From positions 1 to 33,075 of the forward strand of contig JAUWOY010000036.1 in assembly GCA_030611885.1 (NCBI GenBank): a stretch of DNA of 33,075 nt, in the 5' to 3' direction. A model generated the notes under the pieces. It had not been told where the DNA came from. It searched no databases and saw nothing but the letters and a program-made list of their open reading frames with translations. Made by a program: the position numbers and the translations under genes. Below are positions 4,738-30,932 of the stretch, one piece after another; the stretch's first letter is position 1; every line of letters starts with the position of its first letter. This DNA is from Chloroflexota bacterium (GTDB lineage: Bacteria > Chloroflexota > Anaerolineae > VGOG01).

Positions 4738-5003
4738 TGCTGGAAGTCACGCTCCCAGGTGGGATGGCTTTGACGGAGACTGGCCACATATTCCTCATCA
4801 CCAGTAACACGGGCATAGAAGACTTCGTATGTACAGTCATACTTCTCTTCCCAGGGACGGGTCTGGCGACGTAAATCTGCGATACGCTGGCCGATTCTCC
4901 CCACGGCGTAGTGACGCAATGCCTCGTCCACTGCTTGCTGCACATCACCCAGAGGAGCAAGGATGTCGGCGTATTTCTTGCTCACCGTGACCGTTGACAT
5001 CAA
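4671..5003 (-). CDS. Hypothetical protein (110 aa)
   Basis: Open frame MMSTVTVSKKYADILAPLGD...YDCTYEVFYARVTGDEEY...QQWEFYVEEMREWIAQLES. No family recognised. Upstream partner of 4384..4737. Confidence 0.35.
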   Translation of the reverse strand: MMSTVTVSKKYADILAPLGDVQQAVDEALRHYAVGRIGQRIADLRRQTRPWEEKYDCTYEVFYARVTGDEEYVASLRQSHPTWERDFQQWEFYVEEMREWIAQLESISMS

Positions 5004-5040
5004 GCAACACCTCCTTCACCTTCAAGACATCCCTCAATTG

Positions 5041-7494
5041 CTAGGCCCTCTTGCCTTGAACCGGTGCCGGCAGCAAGGCTGTCTCCAACACTTCCCCCAT
5101 CCGCTCCACGAAGATGAACTCCAGGTCCCGCTTGACCTTGTTGGGGATTTCGACCATGTCCTTTTCATTCCTCTTCGGCAGGATGACGGTCTTCAGACCG
5201 GCCCGGTGGGCGGACAGCACCTTCTCCTTAAAGCCACCGATGGGCAGCACCCGCCCCCGCAGGGTGATCTCGCCCGTCATGCCCACGTCGTGACGGACGG
5301 GACGCCTGGCCAGAGCCGAAATGAGGGCCGTGGACATGGTTATCCCCGCCGAGGGGCCGTCCTTGGGGATGGCCCCCTCCGGCACGTGGATGTGGATGTC
5401 GAGCTTATCGAAGTTCCGCCCCTTGATGCCCAACTCCTTGGCGTGAGAACGAGCATAGGAGAGGGCGGCCTGACCCGATTCCTGCATCACCTCGCCCAAC
5501 TGGCCAGTAAGCATGAGACTGCCCTTGCCCTCCATCAAGGTCACTTCCACGGGCATGATGTCGCCGCCAGCCTCGGTCCAGGCAATGCCCATGGCTACCC
5601 CGATTTCGTCCTCCTTCTCGGCCAGGCCGTAGGTGAACTGCGGCGGCCCCAGGTACTTGGCCAACGACTGGGTAGTGATGCGATGAGGAGTTTGCTTGCC
5701 ATCAGCCACTCGACGAGCCACTTTGCGACAGACATTGGCGATCTCTCGCTCCAGATTGCGCACCCCGGCTTCGTAGGTGTACTCGCGGATGATGTGGCGC
5801 AAAGCTTCGTCCGAGAAGCGGAGCTTTGTATTATCATTGTCCAAGCCATTTTCCACCAACTGCCGGGGGACGAGAAACCGCCTGGCGATCTCCAGCTTCT
5901 CCTCCTCGATGTAGCCGGGGAACTCGATGACCTCCATGCGGTCCCGCAGGGCTGGCGGGACGGGATCGAGGATGTTGGCCGTAGTGATGAACATCACCTT
6001 CGACAGGTCGTAGGCCACGTCCAGGTAGTGATCGGAGAAGGCGTGGTTCTGCTCAGGGTCCAACACCTCCAGCAGGGCGGCCGAGGGGTCGCCTCGGAAA
6101 TCAACGCCCAGCTTATCAATCTCGTCCAGCATGAACAGGGGGTTGATGGTCTCGGCACGCCGCATGGTCTGGATGATGCGGCCCGGCATAGACCCCACGT
6201 AAGTGCGGCGGTGGCCTCGTATCTCGGCCTCGTCGCGGACACCGCCCAGGCTCACCCGCACGAACTTCCTCCCCAGCGCCTGAGCGATAGCTTTACCGAG
6301 GGAGGTCTTGCCCGTCCCCGGCGGCCCCACGAAGCACAGGATAGGGCTGCGCATCTTATCGGCGGCCAGCTTGCGGACAGCCATATATTCCAGGATGCGC
6401 TCCTTGGCCTTGGTCAGGCCATAGTGACTATCATCCAACACCTTGTCCGCGGCCGAGATGTCCATGTTGTCCTCGGTGGCCTCGCTCCAGGGCAATTCGA
6501 TCAACCAGTCGAGATAAGTGCGAATGACACTCACCTCAGGGGAAGCGATGGGCATGGAGGAGAGCCGCTCAAGCTCCTTCTCCGCCTTCTCCCGCACCTC
6601 CTCTGGCATTGCGACGGCCGCGATCTTTTCCTTCAGTTCGCTGACCTCCTGGAACTGACCATCAATCTCGCCCAGCTCGGTCTGGATGGCCTTCATCTGT
6701 TGCCGCAGGAAATACTCGCGCTGGGATTTGTCAACCTCCTCCTGCACCTGAGCGTGGATCCGATCCTCCAGTTCCAGGACGTCCAGCTCCTGGGCCAGAA
6801 TGATGCTCAATCGTTGCAGGCGGATAACCGGCTGAATAGTCTCCAGGACCTCCTGGCGTTTTTCGATATCTACGTTGAGAGCGGAAGCCACCAGGTCCGC
6901 CAGCCAACCTGGCTCGTCAATGTTCAGGGCGATCACGTAAGCATCCTCAGGGAGATTGCGGTCCAGTTGCACACACTTTTCGAACAAAGCCAGCACGGCG
7001 CGCATCAAGGCTTGAGTGGAGAGGGTTTTCTCGCTGGGTTCTACTATGTCCCTGACTCTTACTTTGATATAAGGATCAACGTGCACAAAATCGAGGATTT
7101 CGACCCTTCGTGTACCCTTCCCCCAAATGTTGGTCGTGCCGTCGGGCAGGTGCCACATGCGGGCGATGGACATTGAGGTGCCGACATTGTAGATGTCGTC
7201 GGGGACCGGCTCTTCTACCTCGTCATCCCTTTGGGCCGCCACAACGATAACGCCCTCAGTGGCCATCGCTGCCTCCACTGCCTTCAGCGAGCGATCGCGG
7301 CCCACGAAGAGAGGGGTGACCATGTGAGGGAAGATGACTGTATCGCGCAGGGGAAGCAGGGGATATTCGGCGATCTCGTTGGTTTGTTTAATAAGCACCT
7401 CTCCCAAATCCTGGGGGATTCCTTCGGCTCGCCGGCCACTGACGGCCAGAAAGCCTCCTTCTTCGAGAAGTCTATCCATATCGGTATCCGACAT
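5041..7494 (-). CDS. lon: ATP-dependent Lon protease (La), 817 aa
   Basis: Lon N-domain ([23 protein letters not shown]). AAA+ Walker [50 protein letters not shown]. Catalytic serine motif [19 protein letters not shown] and a lysine ([14 protein letters not shown]). GGAGG RBS upstream of ATG 7494. The + ORF 4963..7176 is its antisense shadow. Confidence 0.95.
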
Positions 7495-7644: not shown

Positions 7645-9243
7645 TCATTGGTGATTCTTGGTGAGTAGTGGCAGGAGAACGGGCTGAGGAGCTCCGGCGA
7701 GGAAGCTGTCCGACCATTCCTTGGTCAACTCCAGGTAAGTAAAACCGTGGCTATCGCCAGGCTCGATGTGGGTGTGCTCCCACCACTCGTTGAAGCTGGT
7801 GATGACGATCCAATCGGCCTGGGACTGAATGGCCGCCTGGAAAGTGAAGCCGTAAGTATCACCGCCAGCCCGATCGAGGTACCAGGAGCCAGGGCGGCCC
7901 AAGAGGGCATCATCGTAGCCGGGCATGACCGCTGGCGCCCAAATCTTCCGCTCAGCGTTTGGGTCTTGCAGAAATTGATAGCTCCTCACCCGGCCCGAAA
8001 CCGAAGCGTATACCTCAGGCATATCTGGGGCATAGAAGCCATAGGCGTGCAAGCCATCGAACACCTCCAGATAGCTGGGGTCAAAGGTCTGGCCGACCCA
8101 CACCGCATCGTAGCCATCGGCCTGGATTTGATCGAGTATGGCCTGCCAGGCCTGCAGAGGGGTTTGGCCGGGATTTCTGGCTACGTGGTCAACGGCGTAG
8201 AGAAAAATCACCGGCTTACCCCGATAGCGCAAAAAGTTGGGGTGACCGCTGTAAGAATCCAGGGCGTACTCCAATTGATGGATGACATCTTGAGTCGTCC
8301 TGAAACGCTCGCCCAGGGTCTCGAAGTAGATGGTCGCTTTGAAATCAGTGCCCTCCGCTGCCGTGAGGAGTTTGGCGAAGTTGGCATCCCGGTAGTTGCC
8401 CGAACCCCACCAGGAGGAGATGAAGCCGTGAATGCCATACTGCTGCGCCCAGTTGACGTGCCTGGTGATAGCCTCCAGGTCGTCGGAGCTGTGAGGAATA
8501 AGAGGGTGATCCTCGAGAACGGGGCTCGACCAGGAATCGAGATCATACCAGGGGTAGTAGAAGGCCAAAACCAATCTGGGCGAGACGTGCCGCAGAGGCA
8601 GAGGGCCACCGGTCGTGAAATGGGAATCGGCTATGGAGAAAGAGAAGGGATTAGAGGGGTCGTCCGGTTTGTCAAGCAGATTGGACCAGGAGGCGATGGC
8701 GGCGGCGGACGATGAGTTGTAGTTATAGAACTCCGCCGTGGTAAGGCCCAAATCGCCCTTCTGATTCTCGAAGAAAATGTGACTGCCGCCATCCAGGCCC
8801 GTCATCACCAAATCGTACTGAGCTTTGACCGTCTGGGCCACGGCCTCGGCCAGCGGCTGTTCTAAATAGAGCTCGTCCTCGTCCCACCCAACTCGAGTCG
8901 TCGCGGCGTGGCCCTGCAGGATGGTGGTTGTGACATAGAGGATTCGCTCCCCGCTGCGGACGTAGAGCCGCGTCCAATCGGAGGACGTGCTGAGCACTAT
9001 CCTGGCCCGATACAGCAGCGAATTGCCATCCCCCCTTCCCCCCAACTCTGGGGGGCTAGGGGGCTGAAGAGCAGGCGACCCCTCCACGCTCAGGGCTTGA
9101 GAGAACACCAGCACCCCCAGGCTTATCAGCAAAACCGCCAGGACAGTTTGGAAGTTGGAAGTTGGAAGTTGGAAGTTAGACGCTTGACGCTTGACGTTTG
9201 ACATTTGACGTTTAACATTTAGAGATAGTATAGCTTTCATCAT
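7645..9243 (-). CDS. Secreted two-domain protein with C-terminal TIM-barrel glycoside-hydrolase-like domain (GH99 / endo-alpha-mannosidase-like is my best guess), 532 aa
   Basis: Hydrophobic signal-like segment TVLAVLLISLGVLVFSQA. Motifs FYYPWYDLDSW, YGIHGFISSWWGSGNY and PAVMPGYDD resemble the YYPWY / SWWG motifs I recall for GH99-type hydrolases. Family assignment from memory only. The 5-prime end of the ORF contains the heptamer array 9148-9224. Confidence 0.45.
   Translation of the reverse strand: MMKAILSLNVKRQMSNVKRQASNFQLPTSNFQTVLAVLLISLGVLVFSQALSVEGSPALQPPSPPELGGRGDGNSLLYRARIVLSTSSDWTRLYVRSGERILYVTTTILQGHAATTRVGWDEDELYLEQPLAEAVAQTVKAQYDLVMTGLDGGSHIFFENQKGDLGLTTAEFYNYNSSSAAAIASWSNLLDKPDDPSNPFSFSIADSHFTTGGPLPLRHVSPRLVLAFYYPWYDLDSWSSPVLEDHPLIPHSSDDLEAITRHVNWAQQYGIHGFISSWWGSGNYRDANFAKLLTAAEGTDFKATIYFETLGERFRTTQDVIHQLEYALDSYSGHPNFLRYRGKPVIFLYAVDHVARNPGQTPLQAWQAILDQIQADGYDAVWVGQTFDPSYLEVFDGLHAYGFYAPDMPEVYASVSGRVRSYQFLQDPNAERKIWAPAVMPGYDDALLGRPGSWYLDRAGGDTYGFTFQAAIQSQADWIVITSFNEWWEHTHIEPGDSHGFTYLELTKEWSDSFLAGAPQPVLLPLLTKNHQ
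9148..9224. repeat. Array of 11 tandem heptanucleotide units (4 perfect TTGGAAG, then TTAGACG CTTGACG CTTGACG TTTGACA TTTGACG TTTAACA TTTAGAG) inside the 5-prime end of ORF 7645..9243
   Basis: Read directly from the sequence. AT-rich relative to surroundings. On the coding (minus) strand it encodes LNVKRQMSNVKRQASNFQLPTSNFQ, just ahead of the signal-peptide hydrophobic core. Confidence 0.85.
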
Positions 9244-12596: not shown

Positions 12597-13490
12597 ATGC
12601 CAGTTCCACAGCGCGCTCGGATGATAGAATTTGACCAGGGCAGTCATGCATACTTTGCCTTTGTCAGGACGAGCTCCAGTCCAGAAGACATTATATCACA
12701 ACTAAACCTGGATCCGCTTCCAAAGGGAGTCATCTGGATTAGCGGTGGAGCCACAGATTTTCCTCTTGAGATCGTAGAGCCAACAGTTGCATTGATTGAG
12801 GCCGTGATCGTGCCCCTTGTGTACGAACATGATTTGCTGGTTGTTGATGGTGGTACAGAGGCTGGGATCATGAAGATTATTGGCGAGGTATTTGAAAGAG
12901 CTAAGTACCACAAGCTGAACATCATCGGTTATGAGGAAGACAAGCTCCAGGGACAGAACGCTAGATCCTGGGATCCCTTGCTGATGGGTTTTGTGCCTGA
13001 ACCGAAGGTCTCCTATCCCGGAGTTGATCGTTCGCCGCCGGACTATGCTCCGCTTGATCCCAACCATATCTACTTTGTCATGGTGCTCGATGCAAAAGAG
13101 TGGGGTCAGGAAGTTGAGTGTATGTTCTCGTTTCTGGGTTATTTGGCTACCCAGAGACAAATCCCAACCATTAACATTGTCGCTAATGGAGGGCGAGTCA
13201 CAATCAAAGAGGCCTATCATGCGGCACAACAAGGGCGACATGTAGTCGTTCTGGAAGGTAGCAAGAGAGCAGCCGAAGTCATTGTCGCTGCGCTAGATGG
13301 AGTATCTGACAGAACCTTGGTCAGTTTGCTCAGAGCATACGGGATTACAACACAGAGGCACGAGGTAGAAGAGACGGTTTACTGGCTCAATAGCATTGCC
13401 AAGTACGACAAGATTACGCGTTTTGATTTCTTATCACGGCCACCTGGGGAGTTGAGAGAAATCATTCTCTCTAAGATGGGCCTAGTGTGA
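12597..13490 (+). CDS. Standalone SLOG/LOG-like Rossmann-fold nucleotide-binding protein, 297 aa
   Basis: The motifs ISGGATDF, LLVVDGGTEAGIMKIIGE and IVANGGRVTIKEAY follow the LOG/SLOG pattern (GGxxG...GGxG...PGGxGTxxE). Assignment by motif memory, not by search. RBS GGGAGGG 4-5 nt upstream. Overlaps the next gene by 4 nt. Confidence 0.5.
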   Translation: MPVPQRARMIEFDQGSHAYFAFVRTSSSPEDIISQLNLDPLPKGVIWISGGATDFPLEIVEPTVALIEAVIVPLVYEHDLLVVDGGTEAGIMKIIGEVFERAKYHKLNIIGYEEDKLQGQNARSWDPLLMGFVPEPKVSYPGVDRSPPDYAPLDPNHIYFVMVLDAKEWGQEVECMFSFLGYLATQRQIPTINIVANGGRVTIKEAYHAAQQGRHVVVLEGSKRAAEVIVAALDGVSDRTLVSLLRAYGITTQRHEVEETVYWLNSIAKYDKITRFDFLSRPPGELREIILSKMGLV

Positions 13491-16402
13491 TTAAGACGGA
13501 CCGCGAGCACGGGAGGACACCAGATATGAATTCAGATGCATCAGATACGCCCAGAACACTTTTAGCATATTTTAGTCACAGCTACCGTCCCAGCGAGAAG
13601 GAGATTAATCTATTCTTCTGGGAATTGTTAAGCAAGCACAGCCTCTACTTCACAGTCGACTCCGAAGAGAATAGAGATAAGCCGATGGACATCTCCTACC
13701 TGGAGTGGATGATGCGACGCTGCGCATGTTTTGTAGCCGTCATTCCGCGCCGCGATGACTCACCGCCATATAACTGTTCTCCCTACCAGGTCTTTGAAAA
13801 CAGTCTGGCCATTCGCGCTAAGAAACCACGTTTGATCTTTGTCGAAGAAGGATTAGACGAAACCATCTTCGGCGTTCAACCTGAAGAAGTCTGTTCCTTT
13901 CGTCGAAGAAGAGAATTCCTTGAGGAAGGCAAAGACGATTTCATGAAGTTTGCGAGTCGGCTAGCTCAACGAGCGCATGCGCTTGCCACTCCAGATTTGG
14001 GCCTAAGGAAGCCAGTTACTCTGTTAGCAGACACCACACAAGGGTCGGCCTACCGTTCGGCTACAGTCAGAAGCATTCGCCAGATAGTGCGTGACCAAGG
14101 GTATTGGTTCCGAACTGTGAACCCCACAGACTTTGAACAGGATTCTTTGTTTCTGCGAACGATTGAAGGTTACAGTATATTGATCTCTGAAGTGCGGCAA
14201 CCTTACTTAGCGCCTGATGTGTTGGGGTTAGTGCATAGCCGATGCGTGCCCACAATTCGCATTTGCCATCTGGAAGAACATGAGAGCGTGGAAGAGGCAC
14301 AGGCAGCGATGCACTTACCGTTCAATGAGCACAAGTGGACTGATCAAGACCGCAGCAGCTGGCCGCTCATATTCAGCAAGTACCAGATTGACGATGATAT
14401 GGAACCAGTCATCTTTTGGAAACAGCCAGAGGAAATGCACGAGAAGGTCAGAGTGCGTTTAAGGAAAATCACCGAAAAACGTGTTGACCTGATCACAGAG
14501 CAAGAAGCACGCGGCTATTTCCTGCGCATAGGCCGCCTATCTGGCCAGATGTTCATCAGCAATGCCAAAGCGCAGAACGACTTCGTTGACAGGCTCAAGC
14601 ACAGCCTGCAGCGAAATGCAGTGGACTGGTTCCATTACAAAGATAAGGACGCAATCCCTATTGGATCGAGCGATTGGCTTTCCGAAATCATTATGGAGAT
14701 CCGGAACTCCACCATTTTTGTCGCCCTAGTTGACTCCAACTACACAGCAAGCGAGTGGTGCATAAGTGAGTTTAGAGAGGCAATGAATTTGTTTCGCAAT
14801 GGTGGCGAGATAGAGATTCATGCCTATGTGCTTGAGGATGGTGCCCAGTTGCCCGCAGAGTTGTCCATGATGCAGGTAGCCTATATCGAGACCTTGAACG
14901 ATACCAGTAGGATTGAGCGGATTGTGGAGAATGCAGTGGCGTTTCTGGAGACTGGAAAACAGGTCCGTTTGCGTCCCAGAGCCCGGACTCAGCTCGTGAA
15001 CTTATTGGCGAAGCTTCCATCGTTTGCTTCGTCCAATGAGCGTAGAACGCTTCTGCAGGACGCTGGATTACCGGCTCGAGTCCTCCAGAAAGTTCGAACA
15101 GAGGCGCAAACGAGTGCGAAAGCGGCTGCTGAGATTGTTGATGACCTAGCAGGATGGGAGCAAGAGCTCAAACTACGAACAAAAGCTCTTGGACTGCTTC
15201 TGTCACGCACAATGGGACTCGTAGATTCAATCGAGGAACAGATATTCTTGGCAGGCATGATCCGAGGCTATAGGCTCATGCCGGACATCAAGCTGCAGCT
15301 TGAAGCCCGTTCGCCTTTACGGGAGCTTGGCTTGGCCTACTTCCACGAGCGGAAGGAGTTAGGAACCTTCGAATCAATTCAAAAGGGATCTCTCGTGGAC
15401 CGCAAGCTGGATCAGCATGAACTCGATGCCAATTTGTATGCTCTATCAGTAAGATCCAGTGCCGAGCAAGACGATTGGCACAAGATGTTACGAATCATTG
15501 GGAAGGGCTTGTTTCACAACAATATCTTTGACGACCTCCTTGAGAATTATAAGAGAGCGTTGGACTCTCTCGGGATTCGCAACGAACAACTTGGGTTCTG
15601 CTTTGCCACTGATGCACCAGGACTGCGCATTCCATTTGAGTGGGCGGTTATTGAAGGTCAGAGGACTCCGTTGTGCTTAAGGCACCCTGTGCGGCGCTTC
15701 TTGGATGGATGTCCTGAACCCAGACCTACGTTACGCACACTGCTTGAAGGAGAAGTTGCCATTCCATTACGCGTGTTGTTGGTAGCCTCCAATACAGGTG
15801 GAATTCCAGAAGTGGAGAATGAAGTTGAAGAGCTCTACTCGATGCTTCGCGACTTGTTTCATCGGGTAGGATGGCCAGAATCCAACATTTGCAGACTGAA
15901 CTCTCAGACAGCCACGGTAGATAGTATTAAATGGCAAATCAGGCATGGGCATTATCATATTCTTCACTTTGCAGGCCACGGGGGCTATGATGATGAAAAG
16001 CCAGTTCTCCAAGTTTATCAAGATGCAAGTACGCAACAGATTGATCAGATCTCTGCAACCATGTTGAGAAGCTGGATCATTGATTCAGACCTCTGCTTCG
16101 TTTACTTGAGCAGTTGTCGCAGTGCATCCACAGAAGCCCTAGAATTAGCTAGTGCAATTCGATACTTTGAGAACGTTGGTCAAGCAATCGTTGAGGCCCG
16201 TGTACCTGAAGTAATCGGTTTTTTCTGGCCGATTGAAGACAATCAAAGCAGGATTCTGGCTACACGATTCTACGAGCAATTCCTGAAAAGCTTTGATGCA
16301 CCTCTGGCCCTATATCACGCGAGGAAGTCTTTTGAAGAAGAAAACCGCATCTGGGCAGCTCCAGTTTTGATTCAACAACTCGACACCCAAAAGAGAAGCT
16401 AG
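13487..16402 (+). CDS. Multidomain TIR(-like) / TIR / helical linker / CHAT caspase-like protease fusion protein, 971 aa
   Basis: Residues about 355-470 (MFISNAKAQNDFVDRLKHSLQRNAVDWFHYKDKD...SEIIMEIRNSTIFVALVDSNYTASEWCISEFREAM) form a canonical TIR domain, including the S-x-WC-x-x-E catalytic-glutamate region. Residues about 25-140 (LLAYFSHSYRP...CACFVAVIPRRDDSPPYNCSPYQVFENSLA) look like a second, more divergent TIR-like domain. The C-terminal about 240 aa have the CHAT His/Cys dyad context (YHILHFAGHGGYDDE ... DLCFVYLSSCRSAS). Confidence 0.7.
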   Translation: MIKTDREHGRTPDMNSDASDTPRTLLAYFSHSYRPSEKEINLFFWELLSKHSLYFTVDSEENRDKPMDISYLEWMMRRCACFVAVIPRRDDSPPYNCSPYQVFENSLAIRAKKPRLIFVEEGLDETIFGVQPEEVCSFRRRREFLEEGKDDFMKFASRLAQRAHALATPDLGLRKPVTLLADTTQGSAYRSATVRSIRQIVRDQGYWFRTVNPTDFEQDSLFLRTIEGYSILISEVRQPYLAPDVLGLVHSRCVPTIRICHLEEHESVEEAQAAMHLPFNEHKWTDQDRSSWPLIFSKYQIDDDMEPVIFWKQPEEMHEKVRVRLRKITEKRVDLITEQEARGYFLRIGRLSGQMFISNAKAQNDFVDRLKHSLQRNAVDWFHYKDKDAIPIGSSDWLSEIIMEIRNSTIFVALVDSNYTASEWCISEFREAMNLFRNGGEIEIHAYVLEDGAQLPAELSMMQVAYIETLNDTSRIERIVENAVAFLETGKQVRLRPRARTQLVNLLAKLPSFASSNERRTLLQDAGLPARVLQKVRTEAQTSAKAAAEIVDDLAGWEQELKLRTKALGLLLSRTMGLVDSIEEQIFLAGMIRGYRLMPDIKLQLEARSPLRELGLAYFHERKELGTFESIQKGSLVDRKLDQHELDANLYALSVRSSAEQDDWHKMLRIIGKGLFHNNIFDDLLENYKRALDSLGIRNEQLGFCFATDAPGLRIPFEWAVIEGQRTPLCLRHPVRRFLDGCPEPRPTLRTLLEGEVAIPLRVLLVASNTGGIPEVENEVEELYSMLRDLFHRVGWPESNICRLNSQTATVDSIKWQIRHGHYHILHFAGHGGYDDEKPVLQVYQDASTQQIDQISATMLRSWIIDSDLCFVYLSSCRSASTEALELASAIRYFENVGQAIVEARVPEVIGFFWPIEDNQSRILATRFYEQFLKSFDAPLALYHARKSFEEENRIWAAPVLIQQLDTQKRS

Positions 16403-16498: not shown

Positions 16499-17791
16499 AT
16501 GAAAAAACTAATCGCCCTTGGTGCCTTAGTTCTTGTAATCCTCTCTTACTTCCTGTTTGGGCTCACAGGGTTTGCAATTGGGGCGGCTATTATAGCCGTT
16601 GCTATTCTCTCCTATCGCCTCGCCCGTGAGCCAGGCTTGGCCCGTGCCATACTTCTTGTTACCCTTATCCTTTCATTTGTGATTGGCGGTTTTGTGATCA
16701 GAACTTGGGGACCAAAGCCGACTGGAATCACTAAAGCTGAGGAGATCGCCTTCTTCGTTATCGGAGGGGCGATGGGGCTTATATCCTGGCTATCGGTGCT
16801 CCTTTCTGCATTCTTCTTATGCTCCGAGATAATTCTTGTTTCTCATGGAGGTGATAGGTGGGGATCTTTTGCCTACCTGGTAAGTTCCTTGTTGCTTGAG
16901 CGTGCGGGGGCTCTTGAGATCGTAGATAGAGGTGAAGTGATAACCATAAAATCGAGAGGCTTGCTCGCTCCCTTTAAAGCGATCGGATACGTGATTATCT
17001 ATCATGGAAATGCTGTTGTCTTTGAACGCTTCGGTCGCCTCAGCCAAGTGGCGGGGCCCGGTCTTGTGGTGAAGAGGTCTTTCGAAACGATACGAGCGGT
17101 CGTTGATTTGAGCATGCAAGTGGAGGAAAGAAGGCAAACACTTGTTACCAGAGATGGAATCCCATTGACCACCTATGTAAAAATACTCTTCCAAATAGAT
17201 TCTGGGGGGCGTGCCCCTACGCCTGATGACATGTTTCCACTTTCCGAACCAGCAGTGCTCAATGCAGTATACCTTGTGCCGGATTGGAAGGCATATACCG
17301 TTGAAACGGCCCTTGCCTTGCTCCGCGATATGATATGCACACATTATCTCGACGACGTCTACGCCCCCTTGAAGAAGGGTTCTCGTAAAAGGGCAGGCCT
17401 AGGAACCCATGCACAACTCCTCCAAGATAACCTGCAAACTTCCTTGAGTGCCACAGCGATCGCGTGGGGGGTGAGAATTCACCGGGTGGAACTTGGCATC
17501 GCGGCGCCGCAGGAAATCGAGGAACAAGCCCTGGCCTTCGAAAAGGCGAGAAAAGAGGAGGAACTCGAATACCAAAGATCCAGAGCTGAGAACCGCCGGA
17601 TTAAGCAATTTGTCTCGCAGACTGGAGGAGATGTCACTGATTATGCTCTCCTCCGCTATCTTGAAAGGATTGGGGAATCCGGCATCCTTCCGCCCTCATT
17701 AGACCGGATGCTCCTTGACGCCATGGAAAAGGGAATGTCACGGCCACAGGGGCAAAAGAAGATCAAGGCCAGTGAGGAGGAGGCGGATTGA
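16499..17791 (+). CDS. Membrane protein with N-terminal 4-TM region and SPFH/band-7 (stomatin/flotillin/HflK-like) domain plus C-terminal coiled-coil, 430 aa
   Basis: Four hydrophobic helices in the first about 120 aa. The SPFH core is IVDRGEVITIKSRG...AVVFERFGRLSQVAGPGLVVKRSFETIRAVVDLSMQVEERRQTLVTRDGIPLTTYVKILFQI. Charged helical tail. RBS GGGAGG before the ATG. Confidence 0.6.
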   Translation: MKKLIALGALVLVILSYFLFGLTGFAIGAAIIAVAILSYRLAREPGLARAILLVTLILSFVIGGFVIRTWGPKPTGITKAEEIAFFVIGGAMGLISWLSVLLSAFFLCSEIILVSHGGDRWGSFAYLVSSLLLERAGALEIVDRGEVITIKSRGLLAPFKAIGYVIIYHGNAVVFERFGRLSQVAGPGLVVKRSFETIRAVVDLSMQVEERRQTLVTRDGIPLTTYVKILFQIDSGGRAPTPDDMFPLSEPAVLNAVYLVPDWKAYTVETALALLRDMICTHYLDDVYAPLKKGSRKRAGLGTHAQLLQDNLQTSLSATAIAWGVRIHRVELGIAAPQEIEEQALAFEKARKEEELEYQRSRAENRRIKQFVSQTGGDVTDYALLRYLERIGESGILPPSLDRMLLDAMEKGMSRPQGQKKIKASEEEAD

Positions 17792-22664: not shown

Positions 22665-22784
22665 GTTACCCCTGGCCTGCTAAGCTTTCGAGCCTATAAA
22701 CTCAGTATATCCAAGATTTCCAGCAAAGGCGGCTCCCATGCCTGTCCTGAGCACTTCGACTGCGCTCAGTGTAAACTCCGCCGA

Positions 22785-22830
22785 AGGGCCGCCGGTTCGC
22801 GGGCGTGGGAGCCCGCTCTGCTCAGAATTT
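22785..22830. repeat. Copy 1 of a dispersed ~38-bp GC-rich repeat (gccgccggttcgcgggcgtgggagcccgctctgctcag); the inverted copy lies within the hairpin at 30857-30912
   Basis: The 38-nt core matches the reverse complement of 30859-30896 exactly. Both copies lie in intergenic regions. Confidence 0.8.
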
Positions 22831-22893
22831 GGATCTACTGAAACTGGGAAAAAGCAGGGAGTGCCACGTCGTCGAGTGCACGGAGACGACGAG

Positions 22894-23148: not shown

Positions 23149-23183
23149 GTATGGTATTTGTATCTGCCACCGGGGGAGGAACG

Positions 23184-24248
23184 ATGATAGTCATCAATGG
23201 CTCTTATGGCGAGGGAGGCGGCCAGGTCTTGCGCACTTCCCTGACCCTTTCCGCCCTCCTGGGTCAACCCATGCGCATCGAGAACATCCGTGCCCAGCGC
23301 CGCAGACCCGGCCTGCAGGCCCAACACCTCACCGGGGTCTGGGCCATAGCTCAAATCTGCGACGCCGAGCTAGAGGGCGCAGATTTCGGTTCCCTGAACC
23401 TGACTTTCAAACCTCGATCGTCGCCTCGAGCGGGGGAATACTCTTTCGACGTAGCCCAGGCCCGCAAAGGCGGCAGCGCGGGCGCAACCAGCCTCGTCTC
23501 CCAAACCCTGCTGCTGCCCCTGGCCTTCGCCCCCGGCCAATCCCGCCTGACCATACGCGGCGGCACCCACGTGGCTTGGAGCCCCCCCTTTCACTACCTC
23601 AAGCACGTCTACCTGCCCACCCTGGCCCGCATGGGACTGGACGCGAGCGCGGAGATCGAGCGGTGGGGCTGGTACCCGATAGGTGGGGGGGAGATGACGG
23701 CTGCGATCAGGGGCCGACGGGATAGCCAGCTCTCTAGCCTGGATTTGGTTGAACGGGGCGAATTGAAGCGCCTGTGGGGCATCTCTGCCACTTCCAACCT
23801 CCCTCCTCACATCAGCCAGAGGCAAAAGAAGCGCGCGGAGGGATACCTGCAAAAGCGTGGTTTCGCCCCCCAGATCGAGATCGTAGATGCTCCCTCGCCC
23901 GGCAAAGGCACTGCCGTCTTCCTCGCGGCCGAGTACGAGCACGCAGTGGCCGGCTTCTCCTCTTTGGGAAAGCGGGGCAAGCCCGCCGAGAAAGTGGCCG
24001 AGGAGGCTTGCCGCGAATTCATCGCCTATCACCAGAGCAACGCCTGCCTGGACAAGCACCTGGCTGACCAGTTGATTCTCCCCCTGGCCCTGGCCCCTGG
24101 TCCATCAGCTTTCACCACCTGCAAAATCACCCCACACCTGTTGACCAACGTTTGGGTGGTAGAGCAATTTTTGGATGTGAGGTTTGAGATAGAGGGCGAG
24201 GAGGGAGAAAGGGGCAAAGTGCAAGTTTCTGCGGTAAGTGATTTGTAA
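23184..24248 (+). CDS. rtcA: RNA 3-prime-terminal phosphate cyclase, 354 aa
   Basis: MIVINGSYGEGGGQVLRTSLTLSALLGQPMRIENIRAQRRRPGLQAQHL is the RtcA N-terminal signature. The listed ORF start at 23151 is upstream of the RBS; the ATG at 23184 is preferred. Confidence 0.85.
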   Translation: MIVINGSYGEGGGQVLRTSLTLSALLGQPMRIENIRAQRRRPGLQAQHLTGVWAIAQICDAELEGADFGSLNLTFKPRSSPRAGEYSFDVAQARKGGSAGATSLVSQTLLLPLAFAPGQSRLTIRGGTHVAWSPPFHYLKHVYLPTLARMGLDASAEIERWGWYPIGGGEMTAAIRGRRDSQLSSLDLVERGELKRLWGISATSNLPPHISQRQKKRAEGYLQKRGFAPQIEIVDAPSPGKGTAVFLAAEYEHAVAGFSSLGKRGKPAEKVAEEACREFIAYHQSNACLDKHLADQLILPLALAPGPSAFTTCKITPHLLTNVWVVEQFLDVRFEIEGEEGERGKVQVSAVSDL

Positions 24249-24396
24249 GCGTCCAGCCTCAGTGCGATCACGCCGGTTGAGTAGACCGCAGGTCGTATCG
24301 AAACCAAGTGATCGCACGGGGAGGCAGCCAAACGTGGTTTCGATACGCCCCTTTCGGGGCTACTCAACCGACGTTTGGCCTACCCCCTGGACGCAC
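24249..24396. repeat. Left 148-bp inverted repeat (IR-L), a highly structured palindrome-rich element
   Basis: The reverse complement matches 29715-29861 at about 93% identity (about 10 mismatches). Internal perfect stems: cgtatcgaaacca / tggtttcgatacg (13 bp), ccaaacgt / acgtttgg, ggttgagtag / ctactcaacc, cccc-tttc-gggg. The listed ORFs 24029..24367(-) and 29743..29997(+) translate this same repeat (MSSPERGVSKPRLAA...) and are artefacts. Confidence 0.9.
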
Positions 24397-24404
24397 ACGG
24401 TGAT

Positions 24405-24433
24405 TTGACCAATGGTTGACTTTGATGTACAAT
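24405..24433 (+). promoter_or_regulatory. Near-consensus sigma70 promoter (-35 TTGACC, 17-nt spacer, -10 TACAAT) driving the RAMP cassette
   Basis: ttgacc at 24405-24410 and tacaat at 24428-24433. RBS AAGGAG 6 nt before ATG 24516. Confidence 0.55.
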
Positions 24434-24515: not shown

Positions 24516-27500
24516 ATGATTCTGAAAGGTAAGCTTTATGCAGAATCCCCGATTTACAGGGGAAATGCACGCAAGACCCTCTTCACGAGGGATGGAGACG
24601 GGACTCACCGCCTGGTCTCTCTGGCCGGGGAAATCGCGGGGACGGCCGAGTCCTTGATGGACGCCTTCATCGGCCAATCGCGCCGGGGCAGGAACATCGG
24701 CCTGCTGAATCGAATGTGGCTGCGGTTATACGACTCCCCCCTGCCGCAGGGGCTCATTACCAAAGTAGAGTGCCAGTTGCAAGAAAAGAGCTATCCTCGC
24801 GATCACTTCTTTGGCTTGCGCATGGGCATAAAGTTGGACGAGGATCGCTGGGCTGCGGAAGCGAACGCAAATTACAAGATGGAAACGTTGTTCCGCAACT
24901 CCGTCTTCGATTTCAGCCTGTCTGTAAATGAGTCGGCACTACAGCAAGGTGAAAACACAGCCCGACTGTACTACATCTTGCAAGAGCTCGCCGAAGGGCG
25001 ATTCTGGTTTGGGGCTGGCAAGAGCAAAGGCCTGGGGCGCGTTCGCCTTGAAATGGACCTGTCGCCTTTGATCTCCGAAACGCCTCCCCGCCTCCGCCCT
25101 GGAACCAATCACCTGAGGATGTTCTTGACCTTCAACGCCACGAATCCCGTTTTGGTCGGCTGGAACTGGGGCAAGGTAGACCCCGATGTGCCTTCCTTCG
25201 CCGCTATCGAAGGCCGCCTGTTGGTAGGGGCAATGCGCGATCTGCCAGACCCCATCCGCGAGCGGCTGGAGATGGGGTTGACGGGACCGATCCTCAGCCC
25301 GGCAGACTGGAAGCGCAAGTTCGCCGACTATCTTCCGAGAGTCATCGCCATTTGGTTGAGGGAGCAATCTATCGGAGAAGTCGAGGTTTGGGTTTTGCCA
25401 GCCCAAGCCGCGGCCAAGCTGGGCAAAGGGAAGTACGCGCTTTCCAAGAAAATACTCGCTCAGATTCAACCTCTGGTCGAGCAGCCTTTCTCCAGCAAAG
25501 AAACGGCTGATGCTGCGTTCAGGGAAGCCCTGGGGGAAAAGGCCAACATGGCCAAGCGTATCCTCAAGGTCATGGTGCAACAGCGCCAGACCCGCGAACA
25601 GCTCGATCGCGAAGCCTGGCTGGAAGTCGCCAATGGGCTGGGCCTGGATGTCACCCTGGCCGACCGTCTCGCCGAACAGATTCAAAGCGAAAAGGCCCTG
25701 ATAAAGGTTCTGACCCCCGCGTGCCAAAAGGTCCTCCCCCGGCTCTACCAACAGGTGGATCAACAGGTCAATCTGCTGCAGAGCGACGCCTGGGTGGACG
25801 CGGAGATCGCAGCCCGCGAGGAACACGCCCAGATCAAGAACATGTTGCTCCAAGGCAAGATAGGCGAGCGTCAGTGGGGCAAGCCGGATCTGGTTCCCGA
25901 AGGTATCAGTCCCGCCACGTGGAGGGAATTCGTTGCCGCCCACCGCCGCGTGCAATTCCGCTACATGCTGAATGCCAGGAACTTGAACAAGAGCATCACC
26001 AACGACGAGAACATGATCGCCTTCCTCAAGGCCTATCGTGATCGCACTCGCCAGGAGCTGGCCCAGCCCCACCACATTGACTTTCGAGCCGGCGGCCCGT
26101 CCAATCGAGAGATTTCCCGCAAGTATGGCAAGCCCTACGACACGGTGTTCATGCGCATGTTGGCCTGGTCGCCGTCCTCGCAAGAGCAAGGAGCCTGGGA
26201 GATCTACGTCCCCGGCAGCACGATCAAGGGGGCTTTTAGAAAACGTGCTTCGCAGGTGTTGAAAACCCTGTGGGGTGAATCGCGCCAGACCACCGAGATG
26301 TTGAATCTTCTCTTTGGCGCTCAAGGACAGCGGGGGCTGGTCTTTTTCTCCGACGCCTATCTCACCGATCCGTACGACCCGGAACGGGCCTGGTGCTCTA
26401 TGGACGGGGTCAAGATGAACCCCCGAACAGGGCAGCCGATAGAGGCCGCCAAGCACGACTACCTCTTCGCCTATGGCGACCAGCTCGCCTTCCAACTCCA
26501 GTTGGATATTCAGGACATCGAAGAGCAGGATATGGAGGCGATGTCCCTCCTGGCTCACCTGCTCCACGATTTCAAAAGAGGTGACATCCCCCTGGGCGGC
26601 GAAAAGACCAGCGGTTTCGGTTGGGTCAAGGCGGATGTGTCCAGGCTCACCTGGCTGACGGCGGACCCGGACGGTGTGGGAGAGAAGCTGTTCGGGAAGC
26701 AGACGCTGAGCCAGGATGGCCTGTGGCAGAGGCTGGACTTGGAGGGCGAGGAGGCCGCCAATGCCTTGCAGATCATCCATCCTATAGCTCCCGAGCAAGA
26801 AGTCTCCTCAACTCCGCCCAGGGCCAGAGCCGGCTTTGTCTCGCACCGGGCTTTCGGCGGCCATTGCGGCACGCTGGTGGTGGAAGCAGAGGTCTTGACC
26901 CCTCTCAACGTACGAGAGAGCGGCGAACCGTCCTTCGTAGCCGCCCTGGCGGATGGCCCTGTCAATGGCTGGGACTTCTTCGCCATGGCTCCCCCCGAAG
27001 CCGCCCAGCGTGGTCCCAACAAAGTCTACGCGCTCCCCAGCCGGAGCATCAAAGGAATGTTACGCCACATCTACTCCATCGCCAGCGATTCCAGCGAGCC
27101 GAGCCCCGACATCAGCCGCTTGAACCCAACAGACGGCTTGTTCGGCTGGGTGGGAAGGGGGCCAAACCAGGCCCTCATGGGGCGCCTGTCCTTCAGCTTT
27201 GGCCCGTTCGAGGAACCCGAGCTGGCCTGGTTCAAAGTGCCCTACCCCTACGGCGAGTGGCAGTACACCGGGGAGCAATGGAAACACTTGCCGGGGAGTT
27301 CCGCCGCCCAGATGCTCATCGGCAAGACGTGGCGGGTTTTCCCCCACGCCCCGTTGGCCCCCATCGTCAAACAGGTAGACGATTTCCAGCCCGATACGTT
27401 CCAGGCCCGCTACTTCAGGGCCATACTGCCTGGCGCCCGCGCCCGCTTCACGATCCGCTTCTGGAACCTCGAGGAGCAGGAGTTGCAGAGGTTGATATGG

Positions 27501-27737
27501 TCTGTGGTGCTGGAGCCGGGGCTCGCTCACAAGATGGGGAACAACCGCTACCTCGGCTTTGGCAGCCTGCGCCTGCACATTCTCCCCGACAGCTTTATGA
27601 TTGACTGGGCCAAGCGGTACGCCGACGAGCCTGAGGAGAGCTGGCAGTTGCCCATCCAGGTTGACGAATGGATCGAGCCCGAGGTGGTTTATCATCACAG
27701 AGCACTACAAAGGGCACTGAATGCTAAGCAGCTTTGA
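24516..27737 (+). CDS. Multi-RAMP fusion protein: Cas7-like domain 1, helical Cas11-like insert, Cas7-like domain 2, Cas7-like domain 3 (gRAMP/Cas7-11-like layout), 1073 aa
   Basis: Three RAMP signatures. (1) res about 1-180, G-rich loop FWFGAGKSKGLGRVRL. (2) res about 530-750, IYVPGSTIKGAFRKRA, LFGAQGQRGLVFFSDAYL and G-loop GGEKTSGFGWVKADV. (3) res about 780-1060, VYALPSRSIKGMLRHIYSIAS, GLFGWVG and G-loop GNNRYLGFGSLRLHI. A roughly 330-aa helical region sits between RAMP1 and RAMP2, in the position occupied by Cas11 in Cas7-11. No HD or GGDD (Cas10) motifs. The ATG at 24516 after AAGGAG is preferred over the listed 24462. Confidence 0.7.
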   Translation: MILKGKLYAESPIYRGNARKTLFTRDGDGTHRLVSLAGEIAGTAESLMDAFIGQSRRGRNIGLLNRMWLRLYDSPLPQGLITKVECQLQEKSYPRDHFFGLRMGIKLDEDRWAAEANANYKMETLFRNSVFDFSLSVNESALQQGENTARLYYILQELAEGRFWFGAGKSKGLGRVRLEMDLSPLISETPPRLRPGTNHLRMFLTFNATNPVLVGWNWGKVDPDVPSFAAIEGRLLVGAMRDLPDPIRERLEMGLTGPILSPADWKRKFADYLPRVIAIWLREQSIGEVEVWVLPAQAAAKLGKGKYALSKKILAQIQPLVEQPFSSKETADAAFREALGEKANMAKRILKVMVQQRQTREQLDREAWLEVANGLGLDVTLADRLAEQIQSEKALIKVLTPACQKVLPRLYQQVDQQVNLLQSDAWVDAEIAAREEHAQIKNMLLQGKIGERQWGKPDLVPEGISPATWREFVAAHRRVQFRYMLNARNLNKSITNDENMIAFLKAYRDRTRQELAQPHHIDFRAGGPSNREISRKYGKPYDTVFMRMLAWSPSSQEQGAWEIYVPGSTIKGAFRKRASQVLKTLWGESRQTTEMLNLLFGAQGQRGLVFFSDAYLTDPYDPERAWCSMDGVKMNPRTGQPIEAAKHDYLFAYGDQLAFQLQLDIQDIEEQDMEAMSLLAHLLHDFKRGDIPLGGEKTSGFGWVKADVSRLTWLTADPDGVGEKLFGKQTLSQDGLWQRLDLEGEEAANALQIIHPIAPEQEVSSTPPRARAGFVSHRAFGGHCGTLVVEAEVLTPLNVRESGEPSFVAALADGPVNGWDFFAMAPPEAAQRGPNKVYALPSRSIKGMLRHIYSIASDSSEPSPDISRLNPTDGLFGWVGRGPNQALMGRLSFSFGPFEEPELAWFKVPYPYGEWQYTGEQWKHLPGSSAAQMLIGKTWRVFPHAPLAPIVKQVDDFQPDTFQARYFRAILPGARARFTIRFWNLEEQELQRLIWSVVLEPGLAHKMGNNRYLGFGSLRLHILPDSFMIDWAKRYADEPEESWQLPIQVDEWIEPEVVYHHRALQRALNAKQL

Positions 27738-28599
27738 TTGGCTGCGCCGCAGTCGGACCGGCGCCGAGTTGTTAGCTACCCTGGAATATCTTACCACCAA
27801 GCCCGATCTCTTCCCTACCGGGGAAGAGATCGGGCTGCCTCATTCAGCCCTGAACGGCCCCTGCCAACGATGCTGGATCTACCCCCGGCTGCCTTTCCAG
27901 GATTACTGCGCACCTTGCCAGGCTATTCTGACCAGAGCCAGCAAGCTGGGCCACATCTCTTACCAATCCATCGTCATCTGGGGTTTTGTCAATTACTTGT
28001 CGAGGCTGCTTCGTATGGGTGAGGGATTTGACGCCCATCACATCTTTGGCGCCTATGCCCACGACGAGAATCATTTTCTGCTGGTGATACCCCGACACGA
28101 GTTAAAGCCCTGGCTGCGAGAACTGGGCATCTACCACGGGGCTGACCTGAAGGGAATAATCCAAGTCTTTCCCACCATGGGAGCAGCAAGAGGAATTGGT
28201 ATGGGGGATATCCTCTGTAGAGCCGTTCATCACGAGGCGCGTTTTTCTATGGACCGATTGCGCGTTCGGTTCTTCTCTTCGCCCTATCAACTCCTGAGAG
28301 CCCACGAACGCGACCGAGAGGGACTGCTCACCTTTGAGATCTCCGAATTCCTGAGCCTGCTAGAAATGGCAGCCGTCTTTCGGACCATCCTGCGCCCCGA
28401 AGAACAAGAGTCGCTTCACAAGCTGCTGGATTTGGAGGATGCCAGCGAGGAGCAGTTTTACTGGGGAAGATTCCTGGGGTTCTTGAGTCAGGAAGCCAAA
28501 GACATGCTGAACGCCTGGAGAATTCGACAGTGGCCTGAGAGTCGAATCAAACTGTTATACGAACTCGTTGATTATGTGGCCTTTTATCAAACCCATTAA
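27721..28599 (+). CDS. Hypothetical protein with N-terminal C-x2-C...C-x2-C zinc-ribbon (292 aa), cassette accessory
   Basis: CQRCWIYPRLPFQDYCAPCQ near the N-terminus. The rest is predicted helical. Overlaps the upstream gene by 17 nt and the downstream gene by 32 nt, suggesting an operon. No known Cas or Csx family recognised. Confidence 0.4.
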   Translation: MLSSFDWLRRSRTGAELLATLEYLTTKPDLFPTGEEIGLPHSALNGPCQRCWIYPRLPFQDYCAPCQAILTRASKLGHISYQSIVIWGFVNYLSRLLRMGEGFDAHHIFGAYAHDENHFLLVIPRHELKPWLRELGIYHGADLKGIIQVFPTMGAARGIGMGDILCRAVHHEARFSMDRLRVRFFSSPYQLLRAHERDREGLLTFEISEFLSLLEMAAVFRTILRPEEQESLHKLLDLEDASEEQFYWGRFLGFLSQEAKDMLNAWRIRQWPESRIKLLYELVDYVAFYQTH

Positions 28600-29593
28600 A
28601 CTCATCCGTTACCTGTTGGTGTGGCGGGTCAATAGCTCTTTGGTCTGGCTGCCGAGGTGTCTATCCACCGAGCTATCCCTGACCCTGGGAACCATGATTG
28701 CCAATCGTTTGCCAACTCGTGAGGCCGGTCCCTGGCGCAAAGCTCTGGCTCCCTGGGATGAATGTGGTGGAATCGCCCTCGTGGGGAAGAAAAAGCCCGA
28801 TAGGATACCAGAAGTATCATGGCCGATGGAAGCGGTATTGTTTGCCTATCCGGGCAAGCGGACCTATGGGCAGGGAGAGTTGATCCTGTGGGAACTCAAG
28901 CTGATGGGAGAGAGCGCAGACCACGGACTTTTCCTGGAAGTTATCCTGCCGGCTATGGAGGAAGCGGGGAGTGCTTCTGAGCTGCGATGGCAGCACCGAA
29001 ACGTCCTCTGGGGGCAATTCGACATCCAGGCAGTTTACGCAGCGCGGGGGCAGCAGTGGGAGCCTATAGTGAGTGACGGGCGACTGGACTTGAACTATCG
29101 TGCAAGCCCCACTCAGTGGGCTGAAGGATTGGATTTTGACTCAAAATCAGAGCGAATATTCGACTGTCTGACCTGGATAACTCCGTTTGATTTCAGCGAC
29201 GCAGACCAGATTGGCCGACGAGGCCATCGGCGGACAACCTCGCGAAAGAGAATACCGCCTCACCAAGTGCCAACCTTGCAGAGCATGCTAGAGTCCCTGA
29301 CAGCCCGGATGAGTTCGTTGCTACCGGGCAAACACCACACAGCCGACGATGTGTGGGATGTCTTGAGCGCGGCGGAACAGGCTTCCTTCCAAGCCATTCT
29401 GGAACAGGCTTCCCACATCCCCGTTCATCATAAAAAGCTTAAACGATCTCCCAAGAGCTGGCCAGGGCGCTGGATAGGCACGCAAACCTTTGCCTCCATC
29501 CCGCACTCCATCATCCCCTATCTTGAGCTGGCCTCCATACTCCACATCGGAAAACAGACCCACTTTGGATGCGGCACCTTTGCGATAAGTTGA
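28568..29593 (+). CDS. Cas6-like RAMP protein (C-terminal glycine-rich loop), 341 aa; start possibly at internal ATG 28694
   Basis: The C-terminal IPYLELASILHIGKQTHFGCGTFAI matches the Cas6/RAMP G-rich loop (G-x5-G-phi-G). Ferredoxin-like segments (AVLFAYPGKRTYGQGELILWELKLMGES...LFLEVILPAMEEAG). Lacks the PGSSIKG-type Cas7 motif. Confidence 0.5.
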   Translation: MIMWPFIKPIKLIRYLLVWRVNSSLVWLPRCLSTELSLTLGTMIANRLPTREAGPWRKALAPWDECGGIALVGKKKPDRIPEVSWPMEAVLFAYPGKRTYGQGELILWELKLMGESADHGLFLEVILPAMEEAGSASELRWQHRNVLWGQFDIQAVYAARGQQWEPIVSDGRLDLNYRASPTQWAEGLDFDSKSERIFDCLTWITPFDFSDADQIGRRGHRRTTSRKRIPPHQVPTLQSMLESLTARMSSLLPGKHHTADDVWDVLSAAEQASFQAILEQASHIPVHHKKLKRSPKSWPGRWIGTQTFASIPHSIIPYLELASILHIGKQTHFGCGTFAIS

Positions 29594-29714
29594 TTATGTC
29601 ACCCCCTCCACTGCCCGCCCCAATTCCCCGCCCCTGACCAATTCTCAATCTTCTCCTTCATCAAGAAAACCTCCTCATTGAGGCTACAGTGATCCTCCGA
29701 GACAAAAACAAGTA

Positions 29715-29861
29715 TGCGTTCAGGGGGTAGGCCAAACGTCGGTTGAGTAGCCCCGAGAGGGGCGTATCGAAACCACGTTTGGCCGCCCCTCCGTGTGATC
29801 ACTTGGTTTCGATACGACCCGCGGTCTACTCAACCGGCGTGATCGCCCTGAGGCTGAACGC
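29715..29861. repeat. Right 147-bp inverted repeat (IR-R), inverted copy of IR-L
   Basis: See IR-L. Internal stems: ggccaaacgt / acgtttggcc (10 bp), cgtatcgaaacca / tggtttcgatacg (13 bp), cggttgagtag / ctactcaaccg, cccc-gaga-gggg. The stems are interleaved, so alternative or pseudoknot-like folds are possible. It lies between the convergent Cas6-like gene and the rplI operon. Confidence 0.9.
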
Positions 29862-29935
29862 TTACAAAAACAATACCTCGCCTGGGGCTACCACGACGAG
29901 GTATTTGGTCCTATATCAACTGAATCACGAAGTCA

Positions 29936-30759: not shown

Positions 30760-30856
30760 AGCATCCTCACTTTCTATCCTCAATTTATCTAATGATACAC
30801 CAAAACGGAAAAAACCTCAAATCAGCCTTGCGGCGACCATCCGCTTGCAAGTTCTG

Positions 30857-30912
30857 AGCAGAGCGGGCTCCCACGCCCGCGAACCGGCGGCATGGGAGCC
30901 GCCTCTGCTGGA
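30857..30912. repeat. Imperfect long hairpin (two 17-nt arms, 14 complementary, loop cccgcgaaccggcgg) whose 5-prime arm and loop form the inverted copy of the repeat at 22785-22830
   Basis: gagcagagcgggctcccacg ... catgggagccgcctctgctgg. The 38-nt core is the reverse complement of 22789-22826. Confidence 0.75.
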
Positions 30913-30932
30913 AATCCCGGAGCTGCTGATTA

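Follow-up and report, generated by a model that had tools for sequence, protein, structure and literature searches.

Subtype III-I CRISPR-Cas systems were described in 2025, mostly from Thermodesulfobacteriota and Chloroflexota (PMC12669027). Among insertion sequences, the terminal repeats of the IS66 family begin with GTAAGCG and the family yields 8-bp direct repeats (PMC11946415). The terminal repeat GTAAGCGTCCGGCG... of ISPsk01, an IS66 element, nearly equals the GTAAGCGTCCAGCC of the MITEs reported here (PMC12888890). In the window, the whole 33,075-nt stretch of Chloroflexota DNA that we analysed, a III-I effector cassette is bracketed by a pair of inverted repeats. We consider it highly probable (about 0.9) that the two arms of this pair are independent, complete MITE insertions beside an older III-I cassette, that their interior is built from modules and that the bracketing is coincidental.

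The cassette (Table 1) is an already known III-I locus, vertically inherited and older than both insertions. It is syntenic across Anaerolineae, where more than 475 homologues of Cas7-11i with 66-96% identity are found, and the promoter-like block upstream of cas7-11i is invariant among the relatives. The 33-kb window showed neither a CRISPR array nor adaptation genes, and none were found in four relatives within 10 kb either. The left element (MITE-L) is inserted into the last codons of rtcA, directly 5' of the -35 box in the cassette promoter. The current stop codon of rtcA (TAA, 24246-24248) is element sequence; the original prediction had placed the start of the left arm 1 nt past this stop, whereas the TAA lies within the element (G-TAA-GCG). 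The right element (MITE-R) landed between cas6 and the convergent gene of a 122-amino acid protein (p122).

Table 1. Position and description of the features of the locus in the window.
Feature	Position	Strand	Description
rtcA (RNA 3'-phosphate cyclase)	23151..24248	+	Pfam RTC 7e-81; 3' end struck by MITE-L
MITE-L target-site duplication, left	24237..24244	+	AGTGATTT; 7/8 vs 24399-24406
MITE copy L	24245..24398	+	154 bp; ends GTAAGCGTCCAG...CTGGACGCACAC; contains rtcA stop codon
MITE-L module 1	24275..24305	+	GGTTGAGTAG-ACCGCAGGT-CGTATCGAAACC; 51.8 bits, E about 1e-10
MITE-L module 2	24336..24369	-	GGTTGAGTAG-CCCCGAAAGGGG-CGTATCGAAACC; 55.2 bits
MITE-L target-site duplication, right	24399..24406	+	GGTGATTT; overlaps -35 box of cassette promoter
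Promoter-like TTGACC-17 nt-TACAAT upstream of cas7-11i	24405..24433	+	10/12 match; intact despite MITE-L
Bracketed subtype III-I CRISPR-Cas effector cassette	24516..29593	+	cas7-11i, cas10i, cas6
cas7-11i	24516-27737	+	NCBIfam NF049957, 1943 bits, full length
cas10i	27721-28599	+	NCBIfam NF049958, 472 bits
cas6 (III-I)	28568-29593	+	NCBIfam NF049959, 323 bits
MITE-R target-site duplication, first	29704..29711	+	AAAAACAA; 8/8 vs 29866-29873
MITE copy R	29712..29865	-	154 bp; minus-strand ends GTAAGCGTTCAG...CTGAACGCATAC
MITE-R module 2	29741..29774	+	covariance model
MITE-R module 1	29805..29835	-	covariance model
MITE-R target-site duplication, second	29866..29873	+	AAAAACAA

Several further features of the window deserve mention. 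A second hairpin repeat family (ATTTCCAGCAGAGGCGGCTCCCATGCC-GCCGGTTCGCG-GGCGTGGGAGCCCGCTCTGCTCAGAA) forms an inverted pair of its own at 22706-22840 and 30852-30924, outside the first pair. These copies are insertions as well, since the related contig L150 is without 30852-30924 and L151 without 22706-22840, with a junction overlap of about 8 nt. Together with MITE-L and MITE-R they bring the number of MITE-like insertions to four, from two families, in a 10-kb stretch. Elsewhere (12597-16402) the window encodes an LSDAT-domain protein of 297 amino acids followed by a TIR-EAD8-CHAT protein of 958-971 amino acids, likely a defence or effector pair; no NCBIfam model was found for either protein. 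The TIR-EAD8-CHAT gene is followed by a gene for a Band_7 protein (Pfam) at 16499-17791.

Two MITE copies and their target sites

A repeat search of the window returned a single long inverted pair, with arms of 157 nt (24242-24398 and 29712-29868) that are 94% complementary and spaced by 5313 nt. The inverted pair originally predicted around the RAMP cassette thus exists, with arms somewhat longer than the 148 bp then given, and the internal stems reported for it are all present. They comprise a 13-bp core (CGTATCGAAACCA/TGGTTTCGATACG), stems of 10-11 bp (GGTTGAGTAG/CTACTCAACC), 10 bp (GTGCGATCAC/GTGATCGCAC) and 8 bp (GCGTCCAG/CTGGACGC), and a further short stem, CCCC/GGGG. The two strands of the arm fold with -77.3 and -85.5 kcal/mol (z = -6.7 and -7.8), values equalled by none of 200 dinucleotide shuffles, and the minimum-energy fold consists of two side-by-side hairpins inside a terminal stem. 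The interleaved order of the palindromes (A B C D A'...D' B') had been taken to permit pseudoknotted or mutually exclusive folds; it is instead a product of two oppositely oriented module copies per element, as conserved segments that occur twice in inverted orientation necessarily complement each other. A tRNA search of the window gave nothing at the arms. With the Rfam 15 covariance models, the gathering threshold gave no match in the window, and relaxing the cutoff to E = 10 yielded spurious miRNA/lncRNA matches only.

The ends of the element were set by alignment to 12 full-length copies of its family, which assigns 154 bp to both copies in the window, with ends that read GTAAGCG...CGCTTAC overall. 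Across the family, the left end is GTAAGCGTTCAG and the right end CTGAACGCTTAC, with lengths of 153-157 bp and unrelated flanks. All complete copies start with G(T/C)A(A/G)GCG and canonically close with CGCTTAC. The perfectly complementary terminal repeat (GTAAGCGTTCAG/CTGAACGCTTAC) covers about 12 bp; past these 12 bp the arms diverge (GCC vs GGG), then pairing resumes.

Both copies are flanked by an 8-bp duplication (Table 1), while the outer flanks of the two arms, AGTGATTT and AAAAACAA, do not match. Since each arm has a duplication of its own, each is a whole MITE and not half of a larger unit. The same holds for the family at large: the 8-nt flanks are identical at six or more of eight positions in 10 of the 15 unique complete copies, whereas mismatched pairs of left and right flanks, used as control, agree on average at 2.2 and at most at 5 of 8 positions. 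The flanks of the other five copies show poor identity, and some of these copies resemble metagenome assembly chimeras with one common flank. As judged from the end sequence and the duplication length, the family is probably of the IS66 type. Each 154-bp element inserted separately, giving rise to its own 8-bp duplication, with an IS66-family DDE transposase presumably supplied in trans and acting by cut-and-paste or copy-out.

No autonomous IS66-family partner with matching ends was found in the sequences examined, and in the loci examined there were no paired GTAAGCG ends 0.4-5 kb apart that enclose a transposase. The sole result of the paired-end search was a MITE with a second element nested in its right end (L147, 5480-5935). 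Here, an unrelated repeat of about 300 nt sits within the right terminal repeat, between CTGAAC and CGCTTAC, and the outer 8-bp duplication of the MITE (AACAAAAG) remains perfect (8/8). The junction of this nested repeat, CTGAAC-CTTTGAGGCCCAAAATTC..., is seen again in L132 and L140.

The family is dispersed. About 20 copies besides those in the window lie in unrelated metagenome contexts, scanning metagenomes with a 21-nt piece of the element retrieved 30 stretches with unrelated flanks, and a genome scan revealed a third full copy in a contig of an Anaerolineae MAG (L032). Copies are scattered in intergenic regions and unrelated to RAMP genes, which at the level of the family is the pattern that the original prediction had named as the mark of a repeat merely coincident with the cassette. 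Copies L and R are 93.5% identical to each other, whereas L is 94.8% identical to the copy in L032 and R 94.3% identical to one in L124. Because each is nearer to copies outside the window, the two represent separate arrivals from a pool of copies, and the earlier argument that a divergence of 7% speaks against a very recent duplication is borne out. In two of the metagenome contigs, a real CRISPR array with a period of about 73-75 nt lies about 4 kb from a MITE (L129, about 4424-5164; L139, about 4445-5113); its repeat, which contains GTTACAGTGGGTTC...AGGATACTGAAAGT, is unrelated to the module described below.

Relatives of the window differ in the presence of the MITEs at orthologous sites. 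L150, with a Cas7-11i 96% identical to that of the window, has the same gene order (cas7-11i-cas10i-cas6-p122-L9-RodZ) and is exactly 162 nt (154 + 8) shorter at the right site, with one AAAAACAA there. In L151 and L152 (86%), cas7-11i comes directly after rtcA, GTGATTTG occurs once and MITE-L is absent; the synteny of L151 with the window spans about 17.8 to 32 kb. Because the scaffold of L150 ends at the left site, the left empty site is demonstrated in the 86% relatives only. That scaffold terminates (positions 1-55) in a different repeat (…CTTGAGACTTCCGAAGTCT…ACACACCCA) abutting the same AGTGATTTG target as MITE-L, which suggests that the left target site is an insertion hot spot. A comparison of the rtcA-rplI junction with relatives lacking the cassette had been proposed; what the relatives hold is the rtcA-cassette-L9 synteny minus one or the other arm. 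In this lineage the cassette is always beside rtcA. In a 69% relative it occupies a different locus, between a SNF2 helicase gene and AddB-like/PIN/UvrD genes, with no module within 10 kb.

A hairpin module inside the MITE

Each MITE contains two inverted copies of a module of about 32 nt, which consists of GGTTGAGTAG, a GC-rich hairpin of 9-12 nt and CGTATCGAAACC. A covariance model of the module locates exactly four copies in the window, all of them in the two MITEs (Table 1), and each has an extra outer stem, GTGCGATCAC or GGCCAAACGT. In the central stem, 43-47 double changes per pair were counted and G-T wobbles are almost nil, counts that lean towards structure as the alignment used (A5) was fitted to the model. 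The outer GGTT/AACC stem of diverged copies also shows compensatory changes, from GC to AU in 11 sequences and from UA to CG in 8. The inner pairs GA/TC and TA/TA and three bulges (G, G and GA) are invariant, GAGTAG immediately precedes the covarying stem in 128 of 128 aligned copies, and a C at position -4 and a G at position -3 (89-97%) are conserved upstream without a pairing partner. C-GNA-G triloops make up 58 of 141 module loops. GNA triloops are especially stable in DNA, rather than RNA, hairpins. Hammerhead and hairpin ribozymes, the k-turn and sarcin-ricin motifs, integron attC, hix/gix invertase sites, parS and dif were considered as resemblances and set aside, as upon inspection none agrees in conserved bases or geometry.

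The pattern of the module, with 22 specified bases, matched more than 116 genome stretches, compared to a calculated expectation by chance of about 0.3. The matches listed belong to Treponema, to Microbacteriaceae and other Actinomycetota, and to Anaerolineae, Caldilineaceae and other Chloroflexota, along with one Synechococcus MAG; letter for letter, the module is the same in at least three other bacterial phyla. Only six matches were found in 2.9 million viral contigs, and a BLAST search of a plasmid collection with the consensus module gave chance hits only. Searching the full text of the literature for the motif strings of the module returned chance primer matches only, and nothing relevant was found on RAYT/REPIN in these phyla or on in-frame palindromic elements. 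Of all features of the locus, only the module, which has no counterpart in Rfam or in the literature searched, may be new.

Among the matches listed, modules occur solo or arranged head-to-head (35), in tandem (24) or tail-to-tail (11), and 168 of 230 are intergenic, with ORF calls being heuristic in high-GC loci. Solo modules in this set have no strand bias with respect to the flanking genes (17 same, 21 opposite), and modules are present in 22 convergent regions compared to 3 divergent ones, divergent promoters being avoided. They cluster within tens of bases past stop codons. The 129 ORFs that flank modules fall into 181 Pfam families, none with more than three members, and neither a transposase nor Cas is among the top 25 families listed. 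Likewise, the full Pfam tables show ordinary proteins (M48, PIN, FliJ, GNAT, LacI) and no transposase for the 10 ORFs elsewhere that are bracketed by two modules. At 146 other module or MITE loci, no homologues of Cas7-11i, Cas10i, Cas6 or RtcA were found.

Of the 42 modules in low-GC genomes, 13 are placed in frame within long ORFs. Examples from Treponema are a SufD-like protein (...VYDG-WLSSPEGVSKP-QVL...) and a MetH-like protein of 855 amino acids (...VSIRPSAYSTT...); in two Treponema species an in-frame module occupies an orthologous site, and a module doublet lies within an ORF of 467 amino acids. The MetH-like homocysteine methyltransferases of Treponema (L005 2583-5147 and its homologues P0121-P0160; proteins of 835-894 amino acids) have a hypervariable inter-domain linker that has been repeatedly invaded, by the module (VVSIRPSAYSTT; as doublet VVSIRPAAYSTTGSDGEAVVECPQSGCIETT) and by other GC-rich, repeat-derived peptides. 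A clean empty site for the module was not obtained among these homologues, given this linker.

The lack of strand bias, the rare wobbles and the DNA-type triloops favour a substrate at the DNA level that is probably single-stranded. Most likely, the module functions as a hairpin of single-stranded DNA that an enzyme recognises. It is itself a dispersed REP-like or RPE-like repeat of the form (CGNT)GGTTGAGTAG-variable GC-rich stem, 3-4-nt loop-CGTATCGAAACC. More tentatively, and with rather more doubt than confidence, the module, at about 32-40 nt, might be a mobile DNA hairpin that crosses phyla, made up of CGNT-GGTTGAGTAG, a variable stem with GNA triloop, CGTATCGAAACC and three conserved bulges, which is the substrate of a single-strand-specific nuclease or transposase cutting at the bulged junction (GAG^TAG, GTA^TCG) and spreads without target duplication. 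On the same tentative reading, other MITEs would carry it along, and proteins would tolerate its insertion in frame.

A nested insert of 24-46 nt with the motif GTCC(C)TGAGC...CGAAGG(G/A) interrupts other repeats in several places. It splits a hairpin of the second repeat family in the window (22743-22788), lies at GGTTGAG^TAG in module 1 of the metagenome MITEs L122, L127, L137, L141 and L144, and at CGTA^TCGAAAC in a Treponema module (L020, about 7857-7891). When the module is folded, both insertion points lie opposite one another at the bulged G, which hints at a specific cleavage site.

A module with 22 invariant bases that recurs across Spirochaetota, Actinomycetota and Chloroflexota in lineage-specific shells, the probable IS66-type MITE of the window among them, and in frame in Treponema enzymes points to either repeated horizontal spread or a recognition partner that is conserved. 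Identification of this partner enzyme would define a new REP-like mobilisation system with an unusually broad host range.

Alternative explanations for the arms

Inverted arms that tightly bracket exactly three cas genes invite the explanation, already put forward in the original prediction, that they form the terminal inverted repeats of an IS-like composite vehicle by which the cassette was brought into the rtcA-rplI interval, and a public Logan assembly indeed gives a contig of 5315 nt that is broken at the repeats. We attach scarcely any credence to such a vehicle, in view of the separate duplication of each arm, the unmatched outer flanks and the empty sites in relatives: the cassette is in place without the right arm in L150 and without the left arm in L151 and L152. 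Moreover, the arms are not each other's closest relatives, and L153, from more distant Anaerolineae, has a homologous cassette with no modules within 10 kb. Extremely unlikely, too, is a role of the arms as programmed inversion sites or as substrates for homologous recombination that flip the cassette in a form of phase variation. Inverted repeats of 154 bp with 93.5% identity at a distance of 5.3 kb could recombine in principle, but the cassette promoter lies inside the invertible segment together with its genes, so that a flip would not turn expression on or off. All relatives seen have the cassette in one and the same orientation, no invertase gene is present nearby and both arms are ordinary insertions flanked by target-site duplications, which leaves the earlier suggestion of inversion or recombination sites without support.

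The arms might also encode structured RNAs that serve as substrates or guides for the III-I Cas6 and Cas7-11i and so compensate for the CRISPR array that is absent from the window and from within 10 kb in relatives. There is a superficial likeness between the module and a CRISPR repeat (about 32 nt, with GTAG, a GC hairpin and an 11-nt tail ending in GAAAC), and each strand carries one forward module. Yet cas homologues are absent at the 146 other module or MITE loci, the module is abundant in Treponema and Microbacteriaceae beside unrelated genes, k-mer periodicity scans never showed it in repeat-spacer arrays and solitary modules are unbiased with respect to transcription. Relatives without the MITEs keep intact cas genes. 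With no cas association and a cassette that persists without the repeats, the structured RNA for the adjacent Cas6 that was once proposed is very unlikely. It appears unlikely as well that the host keeps the element for a role between operons, either as a terminator in both directions or as a hairpin that stabilises mRNA, as has been proposed for some REP elements, with mobility being secondary. The fold is very stable on both strands and the whole family prefers gene 3' ends and convergent regions, but a T-tract or intrinsic-terminator pattern is absent (no terminator-like site between 24100 and 24560), close relatives dispense with the element and modules occur within coding sequences too. 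Purifying selection against insertions in promoters would account equally well for the 3'-end bias. A terminating or stabilising role is possible as a side effect. Of the dispersed REP-like terminators considered in the original prediction, the dispersed repeat has thus held, in the form of MITEs, whereas the terminator has not, the signature of an intrinsic terminator being absent.

Two independent MITE insertions beside a resident III-I locus accordingly remain our explanation of the arms, and they provide a caution for calling mobile defence islands from flanking repeats, as a tidy pair can be two unrelated MITE insertions.

Comparison with known repeat systems

With IS66 insertion sequences and the MITEs derived from them, the MITE shares the GTAAGCG start of its repeats (GTAAGCGTCCAGCC here, GTAAGCGTCCGGCG in ISPsk01) and the 8-bp direct duplication; like IS66-derived MITEs, it is small, non-coding and dispersed, with empty sites in relatives. 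In contrast, its perfect terminal repeat measures about 12 bp compared to the 20-30 bp quoted for IS66, no tnpA/B/C partner was found in the sequences examined, and its interior consists of two copies of an independent hairpin module rather than a deleted IS. The host, a member of the Chloroflexota (Anaerolineae), is also not among the groups listed with most IS66 members (PMC11946415).

In the case of the module, repeats of the type I-C or I-G style of CRISPR share the length of about 32 nt, a GC hairpin preceded by GTAG and the 3' ...ATCGAAAC; the module differs in never occurring in repeat-spacer arrays, in being without cas association and in having a tail that pairs with its 5' segment. 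The likeness to REP/BIME/REPIN sequences (RAYT, Y1 HUH) extends further. Both are imperfect palindromes of 30-40 nt with GTAG immediately 5' of a GC-rich stem, both form many head-to-head doublets next to tandem and solo copies and nested mosaics, and both reside at gene 3' ends with no strand bias and no obvious duplication around solo copies. However, REPs are specific to a species or genus, whereas the module keeps the same 22 fixed bases across phyla; its stem is variable and its flanks are fixed, the reverse of REPs. Also, no RAYT gene was seen in the flanks of the module (top 25 families listed; 10 bracketed ORFs), and copies of the module lie within coding sequences too. This last property, in-frame insertion in unrelated housekeeping proteins, as for the modules of low-GC genomes, is shared with the Rickettsia palindromic elements (RPE) (PMC10969869). 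Whereas RPEs are about 100-150 bp long and restricted to Rickettsia, the module is 31-40 nt in length, reaches about 100 nt as a doublet and is found in Spirochaetota, Actinomycetota and Chloroflexota.
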